A DNA stretch of 64,000 nt, from the NCBI GenBank assembly GCA_964546795.1, contig CAZJKG010000001.1:61690-125689 (forward strand). Reading direction: 5' to 3'. The notes under the pieces were generated by a model that saw nothing but the letters and a program-made list of their open reading frames with translations, was not told where the DNA came from and ran no database searches. Below are positions 38,172-51,721 of the stretch, in pieces; within the stretch, counting starts at the first letter, position 1; each line of letters opens with the position of its first letter. Position numbers and translations under genes: made by a program. The DNA is from an uncultured Candidatus Saccharibacteria bacterium. GTDB taxonomy: Bacteria; Patescibacteriota; Minisyncoccia; Phycocordibacterales; Phycocordibacteraceae.

Positions 38172-39578
38172 ATGAAAGAAATCGTGCAAGATGGCACGCC
38201 AGTGTTGCGCGATATCGCATTGCCCGTGCCCGAGGATCTCTTCGGCACCCCGGAGCTCGTGCATCTCATCAAGGACATGGAGGAGGCGCTCGACAAAGAG
38301 ACCGAGGGCGTCGCACTCGCCGCGCCGCAAATAGGAGTGTCGTACCGCGTCTTCATCGTAAGGAAAGACAGAACCCGTCCTTCGCCAAAGGCTACGGAGG
38401 GCACAGCACTTCCCCTACACGCGCCGCGAAGCGGCGCGTCGGGCAAACTTTTAGCGGAGTCGGAAGTTTTAGCCCCCGAAATAGAGGTCTTTATCAATCC
38501 CGAGATTGTAAAGACCTCCCGCAAGCGAGCAAAGACAGACGAAGGATGTCTCTCGGTTCGCGGCGTGTACGGCACGACCAACCGGCACGAACGCGTTACC
38601 ATCCGCGCCCGTCGTCCTGACGGCTCTAAACTAACGCGCGGCGCCGGCGGACTCTTGGCGCAAATATTCGAACATGAAATAGACCATTTGAACGGCATCC
38701 TCTTTATTGACCATGCCGAACATCTCATTCACATAAAGCGTCAATTGGAGCATCGCTTCGCCTATTTCGGTACGCCCCATGTCGCGAGCGATACGCTTGC
38801 CATTCTCATCGAACGCGGGTTTGTACCTTCCGTCGTTGTAACTTCTCCGGACGCGCCGAAAGGTCGGGGTCTTGCTCTTGCACCGTCCGAAACGAAAAAG
38901 CTCGCGCTTGTACACGGTATCCCCGTCATGACTCCGGAAAAATTAGACGCAAATGCAATCGCTGAGATAAATACATTCGCATGCGACTATGCCGTCGTCG
39001 TCGCCTACGGCAAGATATTTCCCGAAGAGCTTATAACCGCATTCCCCCGAGGCGTGGTAAATGTCCATTATTCACTTCTGCCGAAATATCGCGGAGCGAC
39101 ACCGCTTGAGACGGCTCTCCTTTCGGGCGACACGGAGACCGGCGTGACTATACAAGAAATGGTGCGTGAACTTGATGCGGGCGACATCATTGCGCAGAAG
39201 ACCACCGAAATTGCGCTGTTTGAGACCGCGCGCGAGCTGCGAGCGCGACTCATCGATATGGGAGCTTCCCTGCTTGCCGACACTCTCCCCGAATACGCAG
39301 CGGGGCGCATTGAGCCAGTTCCGCAAGACGCCTCCCGCGTCACGCGCACGAGGAAACTCAAAAAAGAAGACGGGCTTCTCTCACTTGATGCTCCTGCCGA
39401 AGTGAACTGGAACAAATACCGCGCATATGCCGACACTATCGGCACCTATTTCTTTGATCCGCCAATCGGCGGAGGTAAGCGAATTAAAATAACGGCGGCC
39501 TCATTTAAAAACGGGGTATTTGTCATCGAGCGCGTCATTCCCGAAGGTAAACGCGAGATGAACTACTCCGCGCGGTAA
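38172..39578 (+). CDS. bifunctional peptide deformylase / methionyl-tRNA formyltransferase fusion (Def-Fmt)
   Basis: The N-terminal half carries PDF motifs G.A.PQIG, EGCLSVRG and HEIDHLNG. The C-terminal half carries Fmt motifs (FGTP, HYSLLPKYRGATP, a C-terminal domain). It is a single uninterrupted 468-codon frame. Confidence 0.8.
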   Translation: MKEIVQDGTPVLRDIALPVPEDLFGTPELVHLIKDMEEALDKETEGVALAAPQIGVSYRVFIVRKDRTRPSPKATEGTALPLHAPRSGASGKLLAESEVLAPEIEVFINPEIVKTSRKRAKTDEGCLSVRGVYGTTNRHERVTIRARRPDGSKLTRGAGGLLAQIFEHEIDHLNGILFIDHAEHLIHIKRQLEHRFAYFGTPHVASDTLAILIERGFVPSVVVTSPDAPKGRGLALAPSETKKLALVHGIPVMTPEKLDANAIAEINTFACDYAVVVAYGKIFPEELITAFPRGVVNVHYSLLPKYRGATPLETALLSGDTETGVTIQEMVRELDAGDIIAQKTTEIALFETARELRARLIDMGASLLADTLPEYAAGRIEPVPQDASRVTRTRKLKKEDGLLSLDAPAEVNWNKYRAYADTIGTYFFDPPIGGGKRIKITAASFKNGVFVIERVIPEGKREMNYSAR

Positions 39579-40271: not shown

Positions 40272-40360
40272 AATCAGTATCGTAACACCGCGTCGGCACA
40301 TCCATTGCGACATGTGATTTTTCAGTTAGAATGTGGACACGCCCTCTTTACGGGGGTTTA

Positions 40361-40440
40361 AAACATTCCGGGATAGCTCTCCGCCGGCTGGCGGAGGTAG
40401 AGCGGTTACAATCCGGGGTCGAGAGTTCGTTCGTAAACAT
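40361..40440 (+). other. tRNA-like fragment: duplicated 5' portion (acceptor + D-arm start) of the downstream tRNA
   Basis: AAACATTCCGGGATAGCTC recurs as AAACATATTCCGGGATAGCTC at 40435-40455. No matching 3' acceptor strand. Confidence 0.5.
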
Positions 40441-40442
40441 AT

Positions 40443-40735
40443 TCCGGGATAGCTCAATGGTAGAGCAGCGCCCTGTGGCTTACGCAGCTTTTCAGAGGAA
40501 TCTGGATCGAATAACGAGGTGAATTGCTGGAAACCCTTCGTGGGCAATCAGCAGCCAAGTCCCGCCGTCGGCTGGAAAGGTTCAGAGACTATCCCGAAAG
40601 GGAGTACTGTCCCGATGTAAAGTCGGAATGGGAAGCGCCTCGCACCGAGAAACGGTGATGATATAGTCCATCCCTTTTGGAAACTTAAGGAGCGATGTAA
40701 GGCGTTGGTTGCAGGTTCGAGTCCTGCTCCCGGAG
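40443..40735 (+). tRNA. tRNA (anticodon read as GTT, Asn) interrupted by a ~221-nt group I intron in the anticodon loop
   Basis: Exon 1 (40443-40476) and exon 2 (40698-40735) form a clean cloverleaf: acceptor TCCGGGA/TCCCGGA, D arm GCTC-AATGGTA-GAGC, anticodon stem GCGCC/GGCGT, loop CTGT^TAA, T arm GCAGG-TTCGAGT-CCTGC. Confidence 0.7.
40477..40697 (+). ncRNA. group I self-splicing intron
   Basis: 5' exon ends in U and the intron ends in G. Internal CAGCAGCCAAGTCC, GGTTCAGAGACTA and ATGTAAAGTCGGAATGGG resemble conserved P4/P7 core segments of Tetrahymena/cyanobacterial tRNA group I introns. Too short to encode a homing endonuclease. Confidence 0.65.
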
Positions 40736-40969
40736 CTAGAAAAAGTTAGGCCCTGATGCGGACAGCATTGGGGTCTTACTTTTTCTCTCCGCGGACAGGA
40801 CTCGAAAGCGAGCGCGGGTACCAGTCGAGCACGACTGGTCGCGCGAGGCGGCTCGCGAAATACTGGAGCGACGGCGACAGTATTTTGTGAGAGAGATGCG
40901 TACTCGCGATCCTGCTCCCGGAGCAAAATAACCGTAGGTCGGTTCAAGATGGCACTTTAGGGTGCTATT

Positions 40970-41326
40970 TTGCTACAATTGAGAATAATGGAAAACAAAT
41001 ATCAGAGTGAAATAACAGTGCTACTCAAGCAAGTTCGTCCAAGACTTTCCACCACACACCAATTAGAATTCAAAAATGTATTTGGTGCAGTTGGTGGTTA
41101 TATCAACGGGCACATATTTATTTCGTGTGGAAAGTTTGGAGTTGCGCTTCGGCTTCCGCCGGAAACTCTTGACCAACTTTTTCACGAAAAGAAAGCAAAA
41201 CGCCTTAAATATTTTCCCAAAGGACATATCAAAAAAGAGTATGCGGTGCTTTCAAAACAAGTGCTTGAAAATAAACAAAGGCTGAAAAAACTCGTGGATG
41301 AAAGTATTAAATTTGTGGTAAAATGA
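40970..41326 (+). CDS. TfoX N-terminal domain protein (Sxy/TfoX competence-regulator family, N-domain only)
   Basis: FKNVFGAVGGYINGHIFISCGKFGVALRL, then KYFPKGHIKKEYAVL, matching the TfoX_N pattern. Confidence 0.55.
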   Translation: MLQLRIMENKYQSEITVLLKQVRPRLSTTHQLEFKNVFGAVGGYINGHIFISCGKFGVALRLPPETLDQLFHEKKAKRLKYFPKGHIKKEYAVLSKQVLENKQRLKKLVDESIKFVVK

Positions 41327-41366
41327 AAAGGTCGAAAACATAAATTAACAACTAATCAAAAACATT

Positions 41367-41546
41367 ATGAAGACACTTACATGTGACCTGTGCGAAGTGG
41401 CAGCGGAAGGTGAGACATTTGAGGCATGGATGAAAGCACTTCACCCTCATTATATGGAGGTCCACGCAGATGTTATGAAAAACTCTAAAGAAGGAGATGA
41501 GCAGAAATGGATGGTGGAAAACAAAGCAAGATTTGACGCTGTCTAA
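41367..41546 (+). CDS. DUF1059-like small metal-binding protein (59 aa)
   Basis: MKTLTCDLCEVAAEGETFEAWMKALHPHYMEVH resembles the DUF1059 pattern (MK.F.C...C.F...GET.EE.......H....H). Not in the ORF track because it is under 60 aa. Confidence 0.4.
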   Translation: MKTLTCDLCEVAAEGETFEAWMKALHPHYMEVHADVMKNSKEGDEQKWMVENKARFDAV

Positions 41547-41575
41547 AACGTACATAAAAAATCTTCTAGCGCATC

Positions 41576-41875
41576 ATGCCAAAGAATACTTACAAGATGC
41601 GTTCAAAAGTATGGCCGTATCCCGGTATGGCGGCATGGCGATTCCTCACTCTGGCAAAAAAGCAGGGGCAGGAAATAAAAAAGAAATTTGGTCGATATGC
41701 CAGAGGATGGGGTTCACTCCCCGTTTCGGTAGCTATAGGAACAACGGTCTGGAACACTTCGATTTTTCCTGATAAGAAGTCAGGGTCGTATGTCCTTCCA
41801 CTCAAGGCGAAGATAAGAAAGATTGAGAACATATCCGACCACTCAACCGTGTCGTTTGTTCTAACGTTACGATAG
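41576..41875 (+). CDS. DUF1905 domain protein
   Basis: GWGSLPVSVAIGTTVWNTSIFPDKKSGSYVLPLKAKIRK matches DUF1905. The true start may be at an internal Met. Confidence 0.55.
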   Translation: MPKNTYKMRSKVWPYPGMAAWRFLTLAKKQGQEIKKKFGRYARGWGSLPVSVAIGTTVWNTSIFPDKKSGSYVLPLKAKIRKIENISDHSTVSFVLTLR

Positions 41876-41907
41876 TAACCTCTATCTTTCCATATCGGTT
41901 AGATTAG

Positions 41908-42096
41908 GTGATGACTGAACGTATAACATTGAAATTATTCTGGATGATGATGCTGTTGTGCGCGGGGTCGGCGCTAACCCTTATCTGGGTGGGCGACGTT
42001 TTTCCGGAGAAAATCGTCCCCACCTTCTTTATCTTAGGTTTCGCGAGCTTCTTAATTTGGGCACCCCTGGTTATCTACCGATTCTTGGCAAAATAG
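41908..42096 (+). CDS. hypothetical 2-TM small membrane protein
   Basis: Two hydrophobic helices, no motif. Confidence 0.25.
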   Translation: MMTERITLKLFWMMMLLCAGSALTLIWVGDVFPEKIVPTFFILGFASFLIWAPLVIYRFLAK

Positions 42097-42124
42097 CGGT
42101 TTTGGATAAAAACGATTCTTTCAT

Positions 42125-42376
42125 TCAACGATGAATGCATCCGGCCCAACAACAAGGTCGGCGTATCCCTTCTATAAGTTCCGTACGTGTCCTCTCGATG
42201 CGGTGACTCCTCGTCTCCGGTTTTTTGGCGGACATAATCCAGCAAATCCATTCATTGCGTGCGAGCGGAGTAATATCTTCCCATGCCGCTCGCGCCGTTG
42301 GAGCCGAAATAAAGGTCTTTCGTAAATCCGCTGGCATCCTGTGTACCGCACCAGTAGCGATTCCTTTTTTGGTCAT
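42125..42376 (-). CDS. YdeI/OmpD-associated (OmdA) domain protein
   Basis: PADLRKTFISAPTARAAWEDITPLARNEWICWIMSAKKPETRSHRIERTRTELIEG matches OmdA. Has an extra Cys-rich C-terminal tail. Confidence 0.55.
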   Translation of the reverse strand: MTKKGIATGAVHRMPADLRKTFISAPTARAAWEDITPLARNEWICWIMSAKKPETRSHRIERTRTELIEGIRRPCCWAGCIHR

Positions 42377-42445
42377 AGGATTACTTTATCAAATTCTCTC
42401 GGTCATGGCGGTTCGAACATTCTCTATCTAGCGGGGCCAAACAAT

Positions 42446-42922
42446 TCAATCACCCAGATCAAGCAGCTTCACTGGCTTCATCACGGCTTTGGGGTTTTGT
42501 TTCCATTCGTCCGACACATCTGCATAGAGTTCAAGTTCGTTAGCATCCGGATCAAGTATGTAGATGCTGTGCGTGACAGTATGATTGCCGGTGCCTACGA
42601 TCGTGACACCTTTTTCTTTCAGTTCACGATATGCTTGCTTCGCATCGTCGGTTGAATTGCCTATCTTGAATCCAATATGGTAAAGACCGGGAGTCGGAAA
42701 TCCCCTTTGGATCGGACTTCCACCGACTTCAATGAGCAACAATTCGTGATGGGTTCTCCCGGAAGAAAATAATGCCATCCCTCCATCACGATGAATCTCA
42801 TGAAAACCTAATGTATTACGGTAGAAGTCAGCTGAACGCTTTAGGTTAGAAACATAGAGAACGACATGGCCAAGTTCCTTAATCTGCATGGGATCATTGT
42901 ACCCTTTTACGGGTCCGAACAT
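42446..42922 (-). CDS. VOC (glyoxalase/bleomycin-resistance/dioxygenase) family protein
   Basis: LGHVVLYVSNLKRSADFYRNTLGF ... HIGFKI, matching the VOC beta-alpha-beta-beta-beta modules. Confidence 0.7.
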   Translation of the reverse strand: MFGPVKGYNDPMQIKELGHVVLYVSNLKRSADFYRNTLGFHEIHRDGGMALFSSGRTHHELLLIEVGGSPIQRGFPTPGLYHIGFKIGNSTDDAKQAYRELKEKGVTIVGTGNHTVTHSIYILDPDANELELYADVSDEWKQNPKAVMKPVKLLDLGD

Positions 42923-42956
42923 TCCTTATCCGGCAAAGTAAAGGTTGGTGTAGAAT

Positions 42957-43757
42957 GTGCCCATGGCGGATACCCGTACCGAACAGAAGAATAATAAAAT
43001 CTGGGAGAATGTCTTGGTGAGAGGTGTGCATAAATTTAATAGAGCACGGTCTTTGTTCAGATATATTCCCTCCAATCCGCGCTGCCGCATGTGCAATGCG
43101 CCGTTCGGGAATATCGGAGCGCCGATAATGCGCTGGTTCTATAACAAGCGCCCTTCAAACCGCAACCCGAACTTCTGCAATTTCTGCGAGACCATGGCGA
43201 GAGACAATCCCGGTGGAGCGGAAGTGGAACTCTCCATGCTTTTCGCTGATATCCGCAACTCCACAGGGCTTGCTGAGACCATGGACGCGACGATGTTCAG
43301 AAGTTTGTTGAACCGTTTTTATGAGGTTTCCAGCAATGCACTCGTCAACACCGATGCGATGATAGACAAGCTTGTGGGAGATGAAATCATCGGCCTCTAT
43401 ATTCTCGGTATTGCGGGACCGAATCACGCCCAAAAGGCGCTTCAGGGGGCAAAGGATATACTTCAGAAAACCGGGCACGCCGACCAAGGCGGGCCGTGGC
43501 TGCCGGTGGGTGTCGGTATCCACACCGGCATTGCCTTCGTGGGGTCAGTGGGATCAACGGACAGTTTCCTTGATTTCACCGCATTAGGAGACGCCATGAA
43601 TACTACGGCGCGCATCGCAAGCAAAGCGGGAGCGGGAGAGATTTTAATGAGCGACACTGCGTTCCGTGCGGCGCATCTTGAAAACGATGCGGAAGAACGT
43701 GTATTGGAATTAAAAGGAAAAAGCCAGCCGGTTATCGTTCGCGTCCTGCATAGTTAA
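42957..43757 (+). CDS. class III adenylate/guanylate cyclase with N-terminal 4-Cys zinc-ribbon
   Basis: CHD motifs LFADIRNST, KLVGDEIIGLY, GVGIHTGIAFVGSVG and ALGDAMNTTARI. N-terminal CRMC...17...CNFC. Confidence 0.8.
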   Translation: MPMADTRTEQKNNKIWENVLVRGVHKFNRARSLFRYIPSNPRCRMCNAPFGNIGAPIMRWFYNKRPSNRNPNFCNFCETMARDNPGGAEVELSMLFADIRNSTGLAETMDATMFRSLLNRFYEVSSNALVNTDAMIDKLVGDEIIGLYILGIAGPNHAQKALQGAKDILQKTGHADQGGPWLPVGVGIHTGIAFVGSVGSTDSFLDFTALGDAMNTTARIASKAGAGEILMSDTAFRAAHLENDAEERVLELKGKSQPVIVRVLHS

Positions 43758-43762
43758 TGAAT

Positions 43763-45019
43763 TTACGCTGCATATTGCGGACGTTGGCGTCCATATACGA
43801 AAAATAATAAAGCCAAGAGCGCCACGCATGATAAGGTGGCGCCAAACATGAATGGGGCCGCCGGACTCACTTTTTCCCATAATAAGCCGGCAATAATACT
43901 CGCGGGAAGTGCGATGACCCCGAGGGCAGCATTGTAGATGCCATACGCCCGCCCGCGATGATCCGCAGGCACCATGTCCGCCACAAACGCTTTTGCAACC
44001 CCTTCGGTAGTCGCATAATACAGACCGTAGAATGCAAAGAGGATCCATATCTGGTAGCTCGCGCTCGCGAACGCAAATCCTGCGTACGCGAGCGCGTAGG
44101 CGAGCCAGCCGAGCATGATGACTTTTTCTCTCCCGATCCGATCCGACAGAGTCCCGAGCGGCACGGATGCGACCGCATAGACGAAATTGAAAAGCGCGAA
44201 GACAAGCGGAATCGCAAGGAGTGTGACTCCAAGGTTCTGTGCTCTCAAAATAAGGAAAGCGTCAGAGGAATTTCCCAGGCCGAACAGCAACATAATGCCG
44301 AGGAATATATAGAAGGAACGTGGGAGAGCTACTTTCACTCCGGTCTCCATTGCTTTGTTCTGTACAGGACTCTCTTGCACTTTGAACTTCAATATCAGGA
44401 GCGTGATGACAAGAGGTATCGCTGTGATGAGAAGTATGATGTGGTATTTCGCCACACTGTCTTGCAGCAGATAGAGCAACCCGAAGAGTGCGAGCGGGCC
44501 GATGACCGAACCAAACGTATCGAGCATGCGCGCGATGCCGAATCCCCTACCGCGGTTATGTGCCTGCGTAGAATCCGCAATAAGGGCATCCTTGGGAGAA
44601 TCCTTCATTCCCTTTCCGATGCCGTCGAGGAAGCGGAGGCCGAGAATAAGGCCGCTTGATGCAGTAAGGGCAAGCATCGGCCGAGCGATGAGCGAAAAGA
44701 AATAGCCGAGGAATATGAATGGTTTTTTCTTTCCGAGACGATCGACAAAAAAGCCCGAAAGTATTTTAAACACACTCGCCCCGCTTGTGACCAAACCCTC
44801 GGAAATGCCGATGAACACTTTGTCGAAACCCAGTACGTTTGTAAGATAGAGTGGAAGGATAGGGATGAAGATATCTTGGCTGATACCGCCAAAGAAACTC
44901 AAGAGACCAATGTAGAATACGTTCCCCGCTTTTTTCTTTTCCGTAACGTCTTTAATCTCATGCATGCATAAAAGTATAGCTTTTAATATGTACGTATCCA
45001 AAATCCTGCTCCGCCCCAC
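43763..45019 (-). CDS. MFS transporter
   Basis: 12 predicted TM helices, and an MFS loop 2-3 motif (DRLGKKK). Confidence 0.75.
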   Translation of the reverse strand: MGRSRILDTYILKAILLCMHEIKDVTEKKKAGNVFYIGLLSFFGGISQDIFIPILPLYLTNVLGFDKVFIGISEGLVTSGASVFKILSGFFVDRLGKKKPFIFLGYFFSLIARPMLALTASSGLILGLRFLDGIGKGMKDSPKDALIADSTQAHNRGRGFGIARMLDTFGSVIGPLALFGLLYLLQDSVAKYHIILLITAIPLVITLLILKFKVQESPVQNKAMETGVKVALPRSFYIFLGIMLLFGLGNSSDAFLILRAQNLGVTLLAIPLVFALFNFVYAVASVPLGTLSDRIGREKVIMLGWLAYALAYAGFAFASASYQIWILFAFYGLYYATTEGVAKAFVADMVPADHRGRAYGIYNAALGVIALPASIIAGLLWEKVSPAAPFMFGATLSCVALLALLFFVYGRQRPQYAA

Positions 45020-45795
45020 ATCGGGATATATTTCCCCATTTTCGTCCGCTTGATGGAAAGTGCAAATGCTTTGCTGTGGAGTGATACACCGATACGGCCC
45101 GCAAGCGAGCGCATATAGGTTCCCGAGGCACAGGTTATCTTTAAGCGAAGTACGGCGAAACTCCTTGTATGCACGATTTTAAAAAGCGACTTCCAGTGCA
45201 CACGAACGGCATCTACGCGAAAATCTTCTCCAAGCCGCTTTGACGGCTCATCGGTGCGCGGAACGAGATCAAGAAATTTCGATACTCTTGCCTCAAGTTC
45301 TGTATCGGAAATTATATATGAGCCCTGATGCTGAATTCGATAGATACGCTCCACATGCTTAGGTATTTTTATGTGCGAAAGCGTTCCTTCAAGTGCATGG
45401 AGAAAGAGAGGTTTACCATTCACGGTCTTCGAAGAAAATGTGGGGTACGCACGCATATGCGCGCCACGTTCGCGATACAGTGCATCGGTAAGAATACCTG
45501 TATCTACGAGTGTTTCTTTATCAGCGTACTCTGGTATACCGAGCACATCACCCGTATCGCTCCCCATATCGAGTAAAACCTCGATCTCATATTCTTTATC
45601 CAGATCCATATACGCGCGCTGCTGTTTGCACTCATCTCCCAGAAGCACGAGTAGTTTACCGCATGCCATCGGGTCCAGACGGCCTGCATAACATACTGGT
45701 ACATCGGTATACTTTTGATTCCGTATCTTCCATGTCCGTATCGCCGCAAGCGGTGTCTCACCCACTTTTTTATCCAATACTACAAATCGTCTCAT
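44983..45795 (-). CDS. truB: tRNA pseudouridine(55) synthase TruB-like
   Basis: FVVLDKKVGETPLAAIRTWK and the catalytic AGRLDPMACGKLLVLLG. Start taken at the internal ATG; the track ORF begins at a GTG inside the inverted-repeat element. Confidence 0.7.
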   Translation of the reverse strand: MRRFVVLDKKVGETPLAAIRTWKIRNQKYTDVPVCYAGRLDPMACGKLLVLLGDECKQQRAYMDLDKEYEIEVLLDMGSDTGDVLGIPEYADKETLVDTGILTDALYRERGAHMRAYPTFSSKTVNGKPLFLHALEGTLSHIKIPKHVERIYRIQHQGSYIISDTELEARVSKFLDLVPRTDEPSKRLGEDFRVDAVRVHWKSLFKIVHTRSFAVLRLKITCASGTYMRSLAGRIGVSLHSKAFALSIKRTKMGKYIPMWGGAGFWIRTY

Positions 45796-45861
45796 TTTGT
45801 GCGCAGTATACCTTGTGAGATAAACTATATCGGGGTTCTTAATAAGCAGGAAATTCTTGTT

Positions 45862-46037
45862 CACAAACTTTGAATTACGAAACTCTCATGAGCGACCGTC
45901 CGCAGGCGCTGAGCTCTGGTGTTTTTTGGCTATACTGCGCGGAGCAAGCCAAAAAACTCAGCGCCGAGGACAGAGCGACGAGCCGCTGGAGCGAGCTCGC
46001 GTGTCGCACGGGAGAGTTTCGTAATTCAAAGTCACAA
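45862..46037. mobile_element. MITE-like element: 21-bp perfect terminal inverted repeats flanked by 5-bp direct repeat CACAA
   Basis: CACAA-ACTTTGAATTACGAAACTCTC ... GAGAGTTTCGTAATTCAAAGT-CACAA. The interior holds a further imperfect hairpin (GCGCTGAGCTCTGGTGTTTTTTGGC / GCCAAAAAACTCAGCGCC). Non-coding. Confidence 0.5.
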
Positions 46038-50974: not shown

Positions 50975-51721
50975 GTGGATAACCGTCTTTTAGATATGGT
51001 AAGCTACGGTCATTACATGGATAAAGAAGAGTTGAGAGAACACGAAGCGCTTGCCCGCACGTTGAACGATCCTGCGTTGCGCGCCGCCTATGCCAAACCA
51101 TTTGATGAATATAAAGCGGGATATATCGCCCGCGTGCTCGGAGGTTTCTTGATACGCTCCGGAGGTCTCATATACGGCAGACAACCTTCCTATGCGAAAT
51201 TTAAAGCCATAGAGGTGATAGCGCGCATACCGTATCAGTCCTGGGAAATGGCGGTGTACACGCTCTTGACCGCCTTTTATACCGATGAACAGAAAGCAAT
51301 CGGTCTTGCGAAAACGAGTACTTTCAGCCGCATGGCCCAGGATAACGAGACGATGCATGTGGTCGTCTTGTCCCAGATAGTGTGCCGTCTCAACTGCGAG
51401 GATGTCCTGCGGCACACACTCATTCCCTTCTTCTTTTCCTTCCTGTATTTCTGGACGGTATACGTCCTCTACCTATTCTCGCGACGAGCGGCGTTTGAGC
51501 TCAATTATCTCTTTGAGGCGCATGCGTACGCGCAGTACAGCGAATTTCTGGAGCGCGAGGGCGAGCATCTGAAACAACGTCCCGTTACATCGGATTTCCT
51601 TGCATTCTATGGCCGAGACGTGCGCAGTGAATACGAGCTCTTTGAACTTATCCGTAATGACGAACTCATCCATCGCAACCGTTCCATACGCGAGCTTCAA
51701 GCCAACGCTCTCGTGATATAA
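50975..51721 (+). CDS. alternative oxidase (AOX/PTOX family di-iron carboxylate quinol oxidase)
   Basis: All four iron-ligand helices are present: IEVIARIP (LET.A..P), QDNETMHVVVL (NERMHL), LFEAHAYAQYSEFLE (LEEEA.HSYTEFL) and IRNDELIHRNRS (RADEA.HRDVNH). Hydrophobic membrane-docking helices lie between them. Confidence 0.7.
   Translation: MDNRLLDMVSYGHYMDKEELREHEALARTLNDPALRAAYAKPFDEYKAGYIARVLGGFLIRSGGLIYGRQPSYAKFKAIEVIARIPYQSWEMAVYTLLTAFYTDEQKAIGLAKTSTFSRMAQDNETMHVVVLSQIVCRLNCEDVLRHTLIPFFFSFLYFWTVYVLYLFSRRAAFELNYLFEAHAYAQYSEFLEREGEHLKQRPVTSDFLAFYGRDVRSEYELFELIRNDELIHRNRSIRELQANALVI

Follow-up and report, generated by a model that had tools for sequence, protein, structure and literature searches.

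The region described here belongs to a window of 64,000 nucleotides (the whole stretch of DNA that was analysed), in which a tRNA-Asn(GUU) gene and the core gene truB enclose a run of small genes carried on both strands. The open reading frames lie at the positions given by the initial annotation, and the features are as follows, in window coordinates:

40441-40736, plus strand: tRNA-Asn(GUU) with a group I intron, delimited by Rfam and by contiguous exons in relatives (exon 1, 40441-40476; intron, about 40477-40697; exon 2, 40698-40736)
40737-40930, plus strand: structured spacer 3' of tRNA-Asn, recognized by folding, repeat and conservation
40988-41326, plus strand: TfoX_N-only protein, 112 aa (Pfam TfoX_N, 37.9 bits; GA 30.1)
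41367-41546, plus strand: s59, 59 aa, with conserved C6, C9, H28 and H33; putative small metal-binding protein
41576-41875, plus strand: standalone DUF1905 protein, 99 aa (Pfam, 68.2 bits)
41908-42096, plus strand: s62, 62 aa, no Pfam match, two hydrophobic segments by eye
42125-42376, minus strand: standalone OmdA-domain protein, 83 aa (Pfam OmdA, 65.3 bits)
42446-42922, minus strand: VOC / glyoxalase-fold metalloenzyme, 147-158 aa (Pfam Glyoxalase, 73.5 bits; GA 20.6)
42957-43757, plus strand: class III (IIIb-like) nucleotidyl cyclase (Pfam Guanylate_cyc, PF00211, 48.8 bits; GA 21.9)
43763-45019, minus strand: MFS_1 transporter, 400-418 aa, 3' of truB (Pfam MFS_1, 165 bits)
44983-45864, minus strand: truB (PF01509, TruB_N), the first conserved core gene past the variable zone and its distal boundary

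The intron-containing tRNA noticed in the initial annotation is tRNA-Asn(GUU), and the intron is a group I intron (Rfam Intron_gpI, 81.6 bits at 40480-40690). The exons run uninterrupted in relatives L030, L012 and L034, and ARAGORN calls tRNA-Asn gtt in relatives. This gene is the upstream edge of the variable zone. The spacer that follows begins with a terminator-like hairpin (40738-40786) and continues into a multibranch domain closed by two copies of the tRNA 3' end, one inverted (about 40786-40800) and one direct. The whole spacer folds with an MFE of -103.6 kcal/mol (z = -8.7) and is conserved in L004, L065 and L021, with compensatory change at 10 pairs. The direct copy is an exact 15-nt recurrence at 40910-40924 of the tRNA 3' end, TCCTGCTCCCGGAGC (40722-40736), 188 bp away start to start, and two matches were obtained in 0 of 100 shuffles. 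No further copy of this sequence was found near 45 kb, at the distal end of the block. A sub-threshold Rfam scan of 40300-41000 returned the intron and spurious miRNA-like hairpin matches, and nothing else. Extra tRNA-Asn 3'-end remnants are also seen in L004 and L011.

The TfoX_N gene comes next. Its longest reading frame opens with a TTG at 40970, and the ATG at 40988 gives the 112-aa length that matches its homologues; this ATG is likely the true start. TfoX_N is the sole Pfam match of the protein, with no TfoX_C domain found. The 756 homologues (68-81% identity, 110-120 aa long) come from Patescibacteria, Chloroflexi and Nanoarchaeia, and they sit in shifting sets of small genes that include a second TfoX_N, an XRE HTH, DUF1330, an AlkD-like gene, DUF1761, OmdA and DUF1905. 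Within these sets s59 is a recurrent downstream partner, located 34-47 nt 3' of TfoX_N in 11 of 50 non-redundant loci. No Pfam domain is found in any of the 380 homologues of s59. The reading frame had been called DUF1059 at the outset, and this assignment had to be abandoned: PF06348 does not match s59 even at E<=10, NCBIfam gives no support, and across the family only 6 of 51 members are touched by DUF1059 (best E 0.036), no better than by random families. The other domain calls made at the same time (TfoX_N, DUF1905, OmdA, VOC and Guanylate_cyc) all pass the Pfam gathering thresholds.

Further along the same strand, s62 is 94% identical in L004 and 70-77% identical in L046 and L052, and its two hydrophobic segments indicate that it is probably a membrane protein. 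On the opposite strand, the OmdA reading frame is absent from the deposited annotation (L001). The VOC gene beside it has sub-threshold NCBIfam matches to Fos, HpaD and glyoxalase I, with no equivalog at cut-off. Copies of the motif GGTTCGAACATTCTCTATC flank it, at 42410 and, differing at 3 positions, at 42912, and they could be the mark of a site-specific insertion mechanism. In L004, GGTTCGAACATTCTCTATC occupies the place that corresponds by homology to the 3' end of the tRNA. The motif was considered as a tRNA-derived att scar and rejected as such, having no T-arm fold and being also present in non-tRNA intergenic sites of L017 and L038. The MFS transporter that closes the block has generic efflux-type NCBIfam matches, every one of them under cut-off.

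The cyclase appears to be monocistronic, and the deposited gene starts at an ATG two codons after the start of the 266-aa reading frame. As the initial annotation had proposed, it is a class III enzyme: all six class III catalytic residues are present and align to the corresponding residues of CyaB. In an alignment of 113 sequences, D98, D142, N215 and R219 are invariant while K138 and T208 are at least 90% conserved. The closest PDB relatives are CyaB, CyaC and Cya2, with profile matches to CyaB and CyaC at E 1e-24 that cover only residues about 86-260. The AF2 model (pLDDT 94.6) gives a Foldseek match to the PDB at E 2.5e-17, with a TM to target of 0.8. The protein is most likely an adenylate cyclase, by prediction. 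In the DxRGST loop, position 101 holds an Asn where at least 90% of the family has a Gly, so that activity can be taken as predicted only. Ahead of the catalytic domain lies a helical module of about 85 aa with two cysteine pairs, CRMC (C43/C46) and CNFC (C74/C77). No counterpart of this module was found in Pfam, among PDB sequences or among PDB folds. The Cys4 motif, first described as unusual, is real, but it is not peculiar to this gene: the four cysteines do not vary among the close homologues sampled, and they are a hallmark of this family of ~265 aa. A literature search returned nothing relevant on Cys4 or zinc-ribbon class III cyclases, or on cAMP signalling in Patescibacteria.

The surroundings of the block are stable. 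The backbone formed by MreB, MurA, Def/Fmt, HPF, DUF167 and tRNA-Asn is kept in about 60 family-level relatives. None of them but the closest, L004, shares with the window the block that starts directly 3' of tRNA-Asn, and L004 has a reduced version of it. This agrees with the original description of the block as accessory. The variability extends to other genomes: when 41 relatives are compared over the 7 kb 3' of DUF167, about 250 of the 280 ORF clusters prove to be confined to one genome. In L062, only 185 bp separate tRNA-Asn from truB, which is likely the empty site. Comparing the window with L004 reveals three clean gene-sized indels, namely TfoX_N, OmdA plus VOC, and MFS, all missing or, in the case of OmdA, truncated to a 3' remnant in L004, where truB and yceG come directly after the cyclase. 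The block genes that are shared are 88-98% identical, and core genes are 78-99% identical. The shared genes thus diverge like core genes, which points to vertical sharing and subsequent piecemeal change; part of the block is known from this one close relative only, which is compatible with more than one succession of gains and losses. Base composition is just as heterogeneous. The block had been said to be richer in AT than the core genome. This is true of TfoX_N (37% GC) and mildly so of s59, DUF1905, s62 and VOC (44-47%), but OmdA, the cyclase and MFS (51-52%) equal the window mean of 51.4%, and the core genes truB, yceG and PAP2 are themselves at about 47%. A PHROGs search gave nothing informative. 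We conclude that the interval between tRNA-Asn(GUU) and truB is probably a plasticity zone, whose cargo genes are gained and lost singly and function independently of one another, not as a single system.

The position of the block beside a tRNA gene invites another interpretation, in which a single genomic island integrated site-specifically at the 3' end of tRNA-Asn and is now decaying. The exact 15-nt copy at the proximal edge, the lack of the block in nearly all relatives and the low GC of TfoX_N fit such an island, and the remnants in L004 and L011 suggest past recombination at tRNA-Asn. However, no integrase or recombinase domain is found among the Pfam calls for the block genes, and the repeat that had been taken for the start of the block is not an att scar marking it: it has no distal partner and is part of a structured spacer conserved in L065 and L021, which lack the block. 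The core-like GC of the cyclase, OmdA and MFS, the three separate indels, and block genes as diverged from L004 as core genes also argue against a single insertion, which we regard as unlikely. On a smaller scale, DUF1905 and OmdA had been described as split, and they are indeed separate genes on opposite strands. They could then be the halves of a recently split YdeI-type gene, still forming a joint two-subunit protein: fusions of the two domains are frequent in other bacteria, the domains are at most 250 bp apart here, and L095 also has both. But the conserved s62 gene lies between them, and the nearest relatives of each are not fusions. The nearest 150 DUF1905 cluster representatives are nearly all 95-135 aa long, 144 of them are shorter than 150 aa and hence standalone, and standalone OmdA homologues of about 83 aa (58-78% identity) exist at other Patescibacteria loci. 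In L004, DUF1905 is 98% identical although OmdA is truncated. Since the nearest relatives are standalone, a split origin is very improbable.

Two further readings place the cyclase at the centre of a system. The initial annotation saw in the block a functionally linked accessory module, in which the cAMP made by the cyclase would serve a competence co-activator of the TfoX type, on the pattern of the Sxy/TfoX–CRP circuit known from Pasteurellaceae and Vibrionaceae. Sxy/TfoX does act jointly with cAMP–CRP, its established partner, and TfoX_N and Guanylate_cyc, both above their Pfam thresholds, are here 1.6 kb apart. The co-occurrence data have nevertheless already largely refuted this link: a cyclase homologue is present at 0 of 86 TfoX_N loci (600 kb examined), L004 keeps the cyclase (88% identity) without TfoX_N, and TfoX_N is absent from five other cyclase-family loci. 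In the window itself, TfoX_N and the cyclase belong to separate transcription units with the antisense OmdA–VOC pair in between, the TfoX_C domain is lacking, and the annotation records no CRP, cNMP-binding, pil or com gene in about 78 kb of contig. We therefore give this link scarcely any credence. Even less plausible is an anti-phage system of the Pycsar (cyclic-nucleotide) kind, in which the cyclase would generate the signal and its small neighbours would be effectors or accessories. The cyclase matches the PADLOC PycC models (43.6 bits, E 4.9e-12), it sits in a variable region, and patatin genes occur near members of its family in L002 and L156. Yet the PycC score is no better than that of the generic Guanylate_cyc model, K138 and T208 form the pair that, in class IIIb enzymes like CyaB and CyaC, is the signature for a purine (adenine), and the neighbourhoods of the family are not conserved. 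As the neighbours (VOC, MFS and others) contain no cNMP-binding, TIR or other effector domain and no PADLOC match, assignment to Pycsar or another defence system was rejected: the PycC matches are generic and the effector is absent.

A model of the plasticity zone can be proposed from these comparisons. The host is a groundwater bacterium with a tiny, Kaiserbacteria-like (Patescibacteria) genome, in which small cargo genes would come and go one by one between tRNA-Asn and truB. TfoX_N and s59 probably make up a cassette of two genes found repeatedly in Patescibacteria, followed on the same strand by DUF1905 and the small probable membrane protein. The opposite strand contributes the standalone OmdA and the VOC metalloenzyme. 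A few further Patescibacteria loci (L095, L088, L098, L104 and L106) also have TfoX_N, s59, DUF1905 and OmdA in company, and there may be some functional coupling among these four. VOC, and the MFS transporter located 3' of truB, could have roles in detoxification or efflux. The cyclase is predicted to be a soluble enzyme of class IIIb type, expressed from its own transcript and most likely making cAMP as a head-to-tail homodimer. D98 and D142 would bind the metals, K138 and T208 would recognize adenine, and N215 and R219 would act in the transition state. In the N-terminal helical module, the four cysteines probably form a metal site that holds the module together. The metal is likely zinc, and the site may be either structural or sensitive to redox or metals.

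The locus thus appears as an ordinary zone of gene flux beside a tRNA, and the tempting story of a cAMP-controlled TfoX competence system in an ultra-small bacterium is removed. What it leaves are two smaller subjects that are possibly worth a specialist's time. The cyclase architecture is very common but unstudied, and its invariant Cys4 module has no structural relative in the PDB. The conserved TfoX_N–s59 pair, with its CxxC/His motif in s59, is 68-81% identical in Patescibacteria, Chloroflexi and Nanoarchaeia, a hint that it has spread horizontally between groundwater symbionts. A bolder proposal, which we make only tentatively and consider rather doubtful, is that the Cys4 module is the defining feature of a large and uncharacterised group of small, soluble cyclases of class III, from bacteria and at least one DPANN archaeon, and constitutes a new metal- or redox-sensitive domain gating cAMP synthesis, with TfoX_N–s59 being a horizontally spread cassette having a function of its own. 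Neither the Cys4 cyclase nor the TfoX_N–s59 pair alone alters current understanding.

Several known systems help to situate these elements. Group I introns at position 35/36 of tRNA-Asn have been reported in Patescibacteria (Nakagawa et al., mSystems 2026, PMC13011429); the insertion site in the window is identical, no difference was noted, and the arrangement is thus already described. As in tRNA-linked genomic islands, the block is strain-variable, adjoins a tRNA and is accompanied by a partial repeat of the tRNA 3' end, but it differs from them in having neither integrase nor distal repeat, in the location of its repeat within a conserved spacer, and in a content that changes gene by gene. 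The locus has the same two Pfam domains as the YdeI-type DUF1905–OmdA fusions, in this case encoded by two separate genes in opposite orientation, each of them closest to standalone proteins. With the TfoX/Sxy competence co-activators of Vibrionaceae and Pasteurellaceae, the window protein has the TfoX_N domain in common; it is without TfoX_C, and it belongs to a tight 112-aa subfamily accompanied by s59 and other small genes rather than by cyclases or CRP. Finally, the catalytic fold of the cyclase matches those of the class IIIb enzymes CyaB from P. aeruginosa (PDB 3R5G) and CyaC from Spirulina (PDB 1WC0), with Foldseek E of about 1e-17, and all six canonical residues are there, including the Lys/Thr substrate pair. 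Compared with CyaB and CyaC, the window enzyme has no MASE, GAF, PAS or HAMP sensor domain, carries Asn101, and bears in front of its catalytic domain the additional Cys4 helical module.

The stretch downstream of tRNA-Asn is probably a plasticity zone that would change gene by gene, its cargo being a standalone cyclase of class IIIb type and small, mutually independent genes. All ORFs listed by the initial annotation are present in 40970-43757, five of its domain calls lie above the Pfam gathering thresholds, and its observation is correct for the most part. The genes are as follows (bits refer to Pfam).

40970/40988-41326, plus strand: TfoX_N (37.9 bits, gathering threshold 30.1)
41367-41546, plus strand: s59, a 59-aa ORF with C6, C9, H28 and H33 conserved across its family
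41576-41875, plus strand: DUF1905 (68.2 bits, above threshold)
41908-42096, plus strand: s62, a 62-aa ORF, 94% identical in the closest relative, L004
42125-42376, minus strand: OmdA (65.3 bits, above threshold)
42446-42922, minus strand: VOC/glyoxalase protein (73.5 bits, above threshold)
42957-43757, plus strand: Guanylate_cyc cyclase (48.8 bits, above threshold)
43763-45019, minus strand: MFS_1 transporter, the last gene of the variable interval before truB

TfoX_N, s59, DUF1905 and s62 form one plus-strand transcription unit, VOC and OmdA form a minus-strand unit, and the cyclase is a plus-strand unit of its own that converges on the MFS gene. Two hydrophobic stretches suggest that s62 is a membrane protein. 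The contig's deposited annotation has no OmdA gene call at 42125-42376 (minus strand), despite the 65 bits to Pfam.

The window belongs to a 173-kb metagenomic contig. With its Def–Fmt fusion protein as query, 63 loci are found in Kaiserbacteria/Paceibacterota-type Patescibacteria genomes; this 468-aa protein (38172-39578) joins peptide deformylase to methionyl-tRNA formyltransferase and retains its full length in about 60 relatives of the Kaiserbacteria type. When the window proteins are compared with the 63 loci by tblastn, the MreB–MurA–hypothetical protein–Def/Fmt–HPF–DUF167 backbone is conserved essentially everywhere, and the block genes are nearly confined to the window and L004 (Def/Fmt 85% identical), which upholds their description as accessory. 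TfoX_N, VOC and MFS occur in the window only, DUF1905 in the window and L004 only, OmdA in the window and L029 with a remnant in L004, and the cyclase in the window and L004, while L046 has an unrelated, longer cyclase. When ORFs from 41 relatives are clustered over the 7 kb that follow DUF167, about 280 clusters result, some 250 of them single-genome, and this region is a general synteny break-point of the family. In L062, truB is 185 bp from tRNA-Asn, an arrangement that is likely the empty state.

The alternative, an att-bounded tRNA island, lacks support. The tRNA 3′-end repeat at which the block was said to start does exist as an exact 15-nt copy (40910-40924), and it is without a partner at the far end of the block; there is no integrase among the Pfam calls. 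Alignment with L004 reveals three separate clean gene-sized indels, corresponding to the TfoX_N gene, to VOC together with two-thirds of OmdA (its 5′ part), and to the MFS gene. Because the OmdA 3′ remnant is retained in L004, the second is a deletion in that genome. The genes common to the two genomes are 88-98% identical, comparable to the 78-99% of the core genes on either side, and thus the common part was vertically inherited by both. The AT-richness ascribed to the whole block applies to TfoX_N (37% GC), whereas the cyclase, OmdA and MFS genes are core-like (51-52%) and the remaining block genes (44-47%) are within the range of truB, yceG and PAP2. Composition therefore supports a foreign origin for TfoX_N only.

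The intron-containing tRNA is a tRNA-Asn(GUU) at 40441-40736, missed by ARAGORN. Between its exons (40441-40476 and 40698-40736) sits a group I intron of 221 nt (Rfam, 81.6 bits), inserted at anticodon position 35/36, exactly as in Patescibacteria tRNA-Asn/Asp introns (Nakagawa et al., PMC13011429). In relatives, the same exons are contiguous or split by introns of 186-316 nt. The 3′-end copy lies in a strongly structured 190-nt spacer (MFE -103.6 kcal/mol, z = -8.7), in which a terminator-like hairpin precedes a multibranch domain; the stem that closes this domain forms between that copy and an inverted one. This trailer (40737-40930) belongs to no Rfam family and recurs in conserved form, compensatory changes included, in L004 (6943-7140), L065 (13769-13966) and L021 (5945-6094, minus strand). 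Since the block is absent from L065 and L021, the repeat is older than the block and is no insertion mark. The inverted copy in L065 co-varies with its own tRNA variant (TCCTA/TAGGA).

On the 5′ side, the tRNA's initial 15-20 nt (ATTCCGGGATAGCTC) recur 76 nt upstream (40360-40440), with a GC hairpin and then GGTAGAGC behind them. This tRNA-like 5′ fragment, part of which is 90% conserved in L048, is recognised by none of the tools applied. In L004 (5995-6945), tRNA-Asn is an intron-less, different sequence variant; an HNH-like ORF rich in Cys and His (116 aa) lies upstream, there is a further ORF of 108 aa, and a degenerate remnant of the tRNA 3′ end in its window form follows. In L011 (13173-13545), too, tRNA-Asn 3′ ends form a tandem pair, the two differing from each other. 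These arrangements suggest replacement or recombination at tRNA-Asn. The window's VOC gene is bracketed by the motif GGTTCGAACATYCTCTAYC (42410-42434 and 42912-42930), found in L004 at 6915, the position homologous to the old tRNA 3′ end, and at other intergenic sites (L017 5640; L038 14312 and 15068). Its reverse complement contains GAGAATGTTCGAACC, an RBS-like sequence plus ATG.

The main inference of the initial annotation, a TfoX–cAMP link with the cyclase, failed all tests run and lacks support. No cyclase homologue is found in the 86 loci (600 kb) encoding close TfoX_N homologues, nor TfoX_N in five loci around cyclase-family members, where the neighbours are unrelated. L004 keeps the cyclase and has no TfoX_N, and in the window the two are in separate transcription units. 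Precomputed Pfam calls covering some 78 kb of the contig include neither a cNMP_binding or CRP gene nor any pilus or com gene. Elsewhere in the window, an alternative oxidase gene (PF01786 AOX) adjoins glutaredoxin (~50975-51721 and neighbours; 18034-19009 in L001), and genes for glutamine synthetase and an ammonium transporter lie nearby, an unexpected set in a reduced Patescibacteria genome.

TfoX_N belongs instead to a tight N-domain-only family (110-120 aa), 68-81% identical across Patescibacteria, one Chloroflexi MAG and one Nanoarchaeia MAG. Horizontal spread is suggested because this identity exceeds that of housekeeping proteins within one family. Among the 50 non-redundant loci whose downstream sequence is long enough, 11 have s59 on the same strand at a distance of 34-47 nt downstream, and the spacer is near-constant (~40 nt) in many Patescibacteria; the pair occurs in L069-L072, L076, L088, L090, L092, L098, L102, L104, L114, L122 and L131. 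The other neighbours are shifting small genes: a second TfoX_N paralogue, XRE HTH, DUF1330, an AlkD-like DNA-alkylation repair protein, DUF1761, OmdA and DUF1905. One JGI homologue of s59 is named “predicted small metal-binding protein”. The proposed DUF1059 identity caught the flavour of s59, but membership is not demonstrable and was dropped: s59 gives no match at E ≤ 10, and the DUF1059 model touches 6 of 51 family members at E ≥ 0.036, more weakly than several obviously random families.

DUF1905 and OmdA, once read as a split YdeI-type protein, are two standalone genes and no fission product. Almost all of the nearest 150 DUF1905 cluster representatives are 95-135 aa long (only six exceed 150 aa), and standalone OmdA homologues of about 83 aa occur in other Patescibacteria loci. 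The two genes lie on opposite strands with s62 in between, and in L004 a 98% identical DUF1905 is next to the truncated OmdA.

The cyclase has 7,301 matches at E ≤ 0.001, the best 120 being 188-461 aa long, nearly all 250-281, mostly with 85-100% query coverage. In alignments of 23 and 113 members, C43, C46, C74 and C77 are invariant, and the Cys4 motif, presented as a peculiarity of this gene, is a family hallmark; the four cysteines stand, while the “zinc ribbon” becomes an uncharacterised helical module that carries a putative metal site. PADLOC matches to PycC are generic (43.6 bits), and its scan of the locus shows no effector adjoining the cyclase. Family members lie near a patatin-like phospholipase gene in two unrelated loci and directly beside a second, longer Guanylate_cyc gene in two loci (L002 5606-6550; L156 7925-10089; L157 3706-4962). 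A modest residual interest lies in the Cys4 module of this very common family, the TfoX_N–s59 pair and the structured tRNA trailer.

In the same alignments D98, D142, N215 and R219 are likewise invariant, and K138 and T208 are at least 90% conserved. Class IIIb enzymes have a Lys/Thr pair as their adenine signature. Residue 101 (43257-43259), in the DxRGST loop beside the first metal-binding Asp, is Asn in the window and L004 and Gly in at least 90% of the family, a caveat to the predicted cyclase activity. The catalytic residues find their counterparts in alignments with P. aeruginosa CyaB and Spirulina CyaC, and the confident AlphaFold model (pLDDT 94.6) superposes on CyaC, Cya2 and CyaB.
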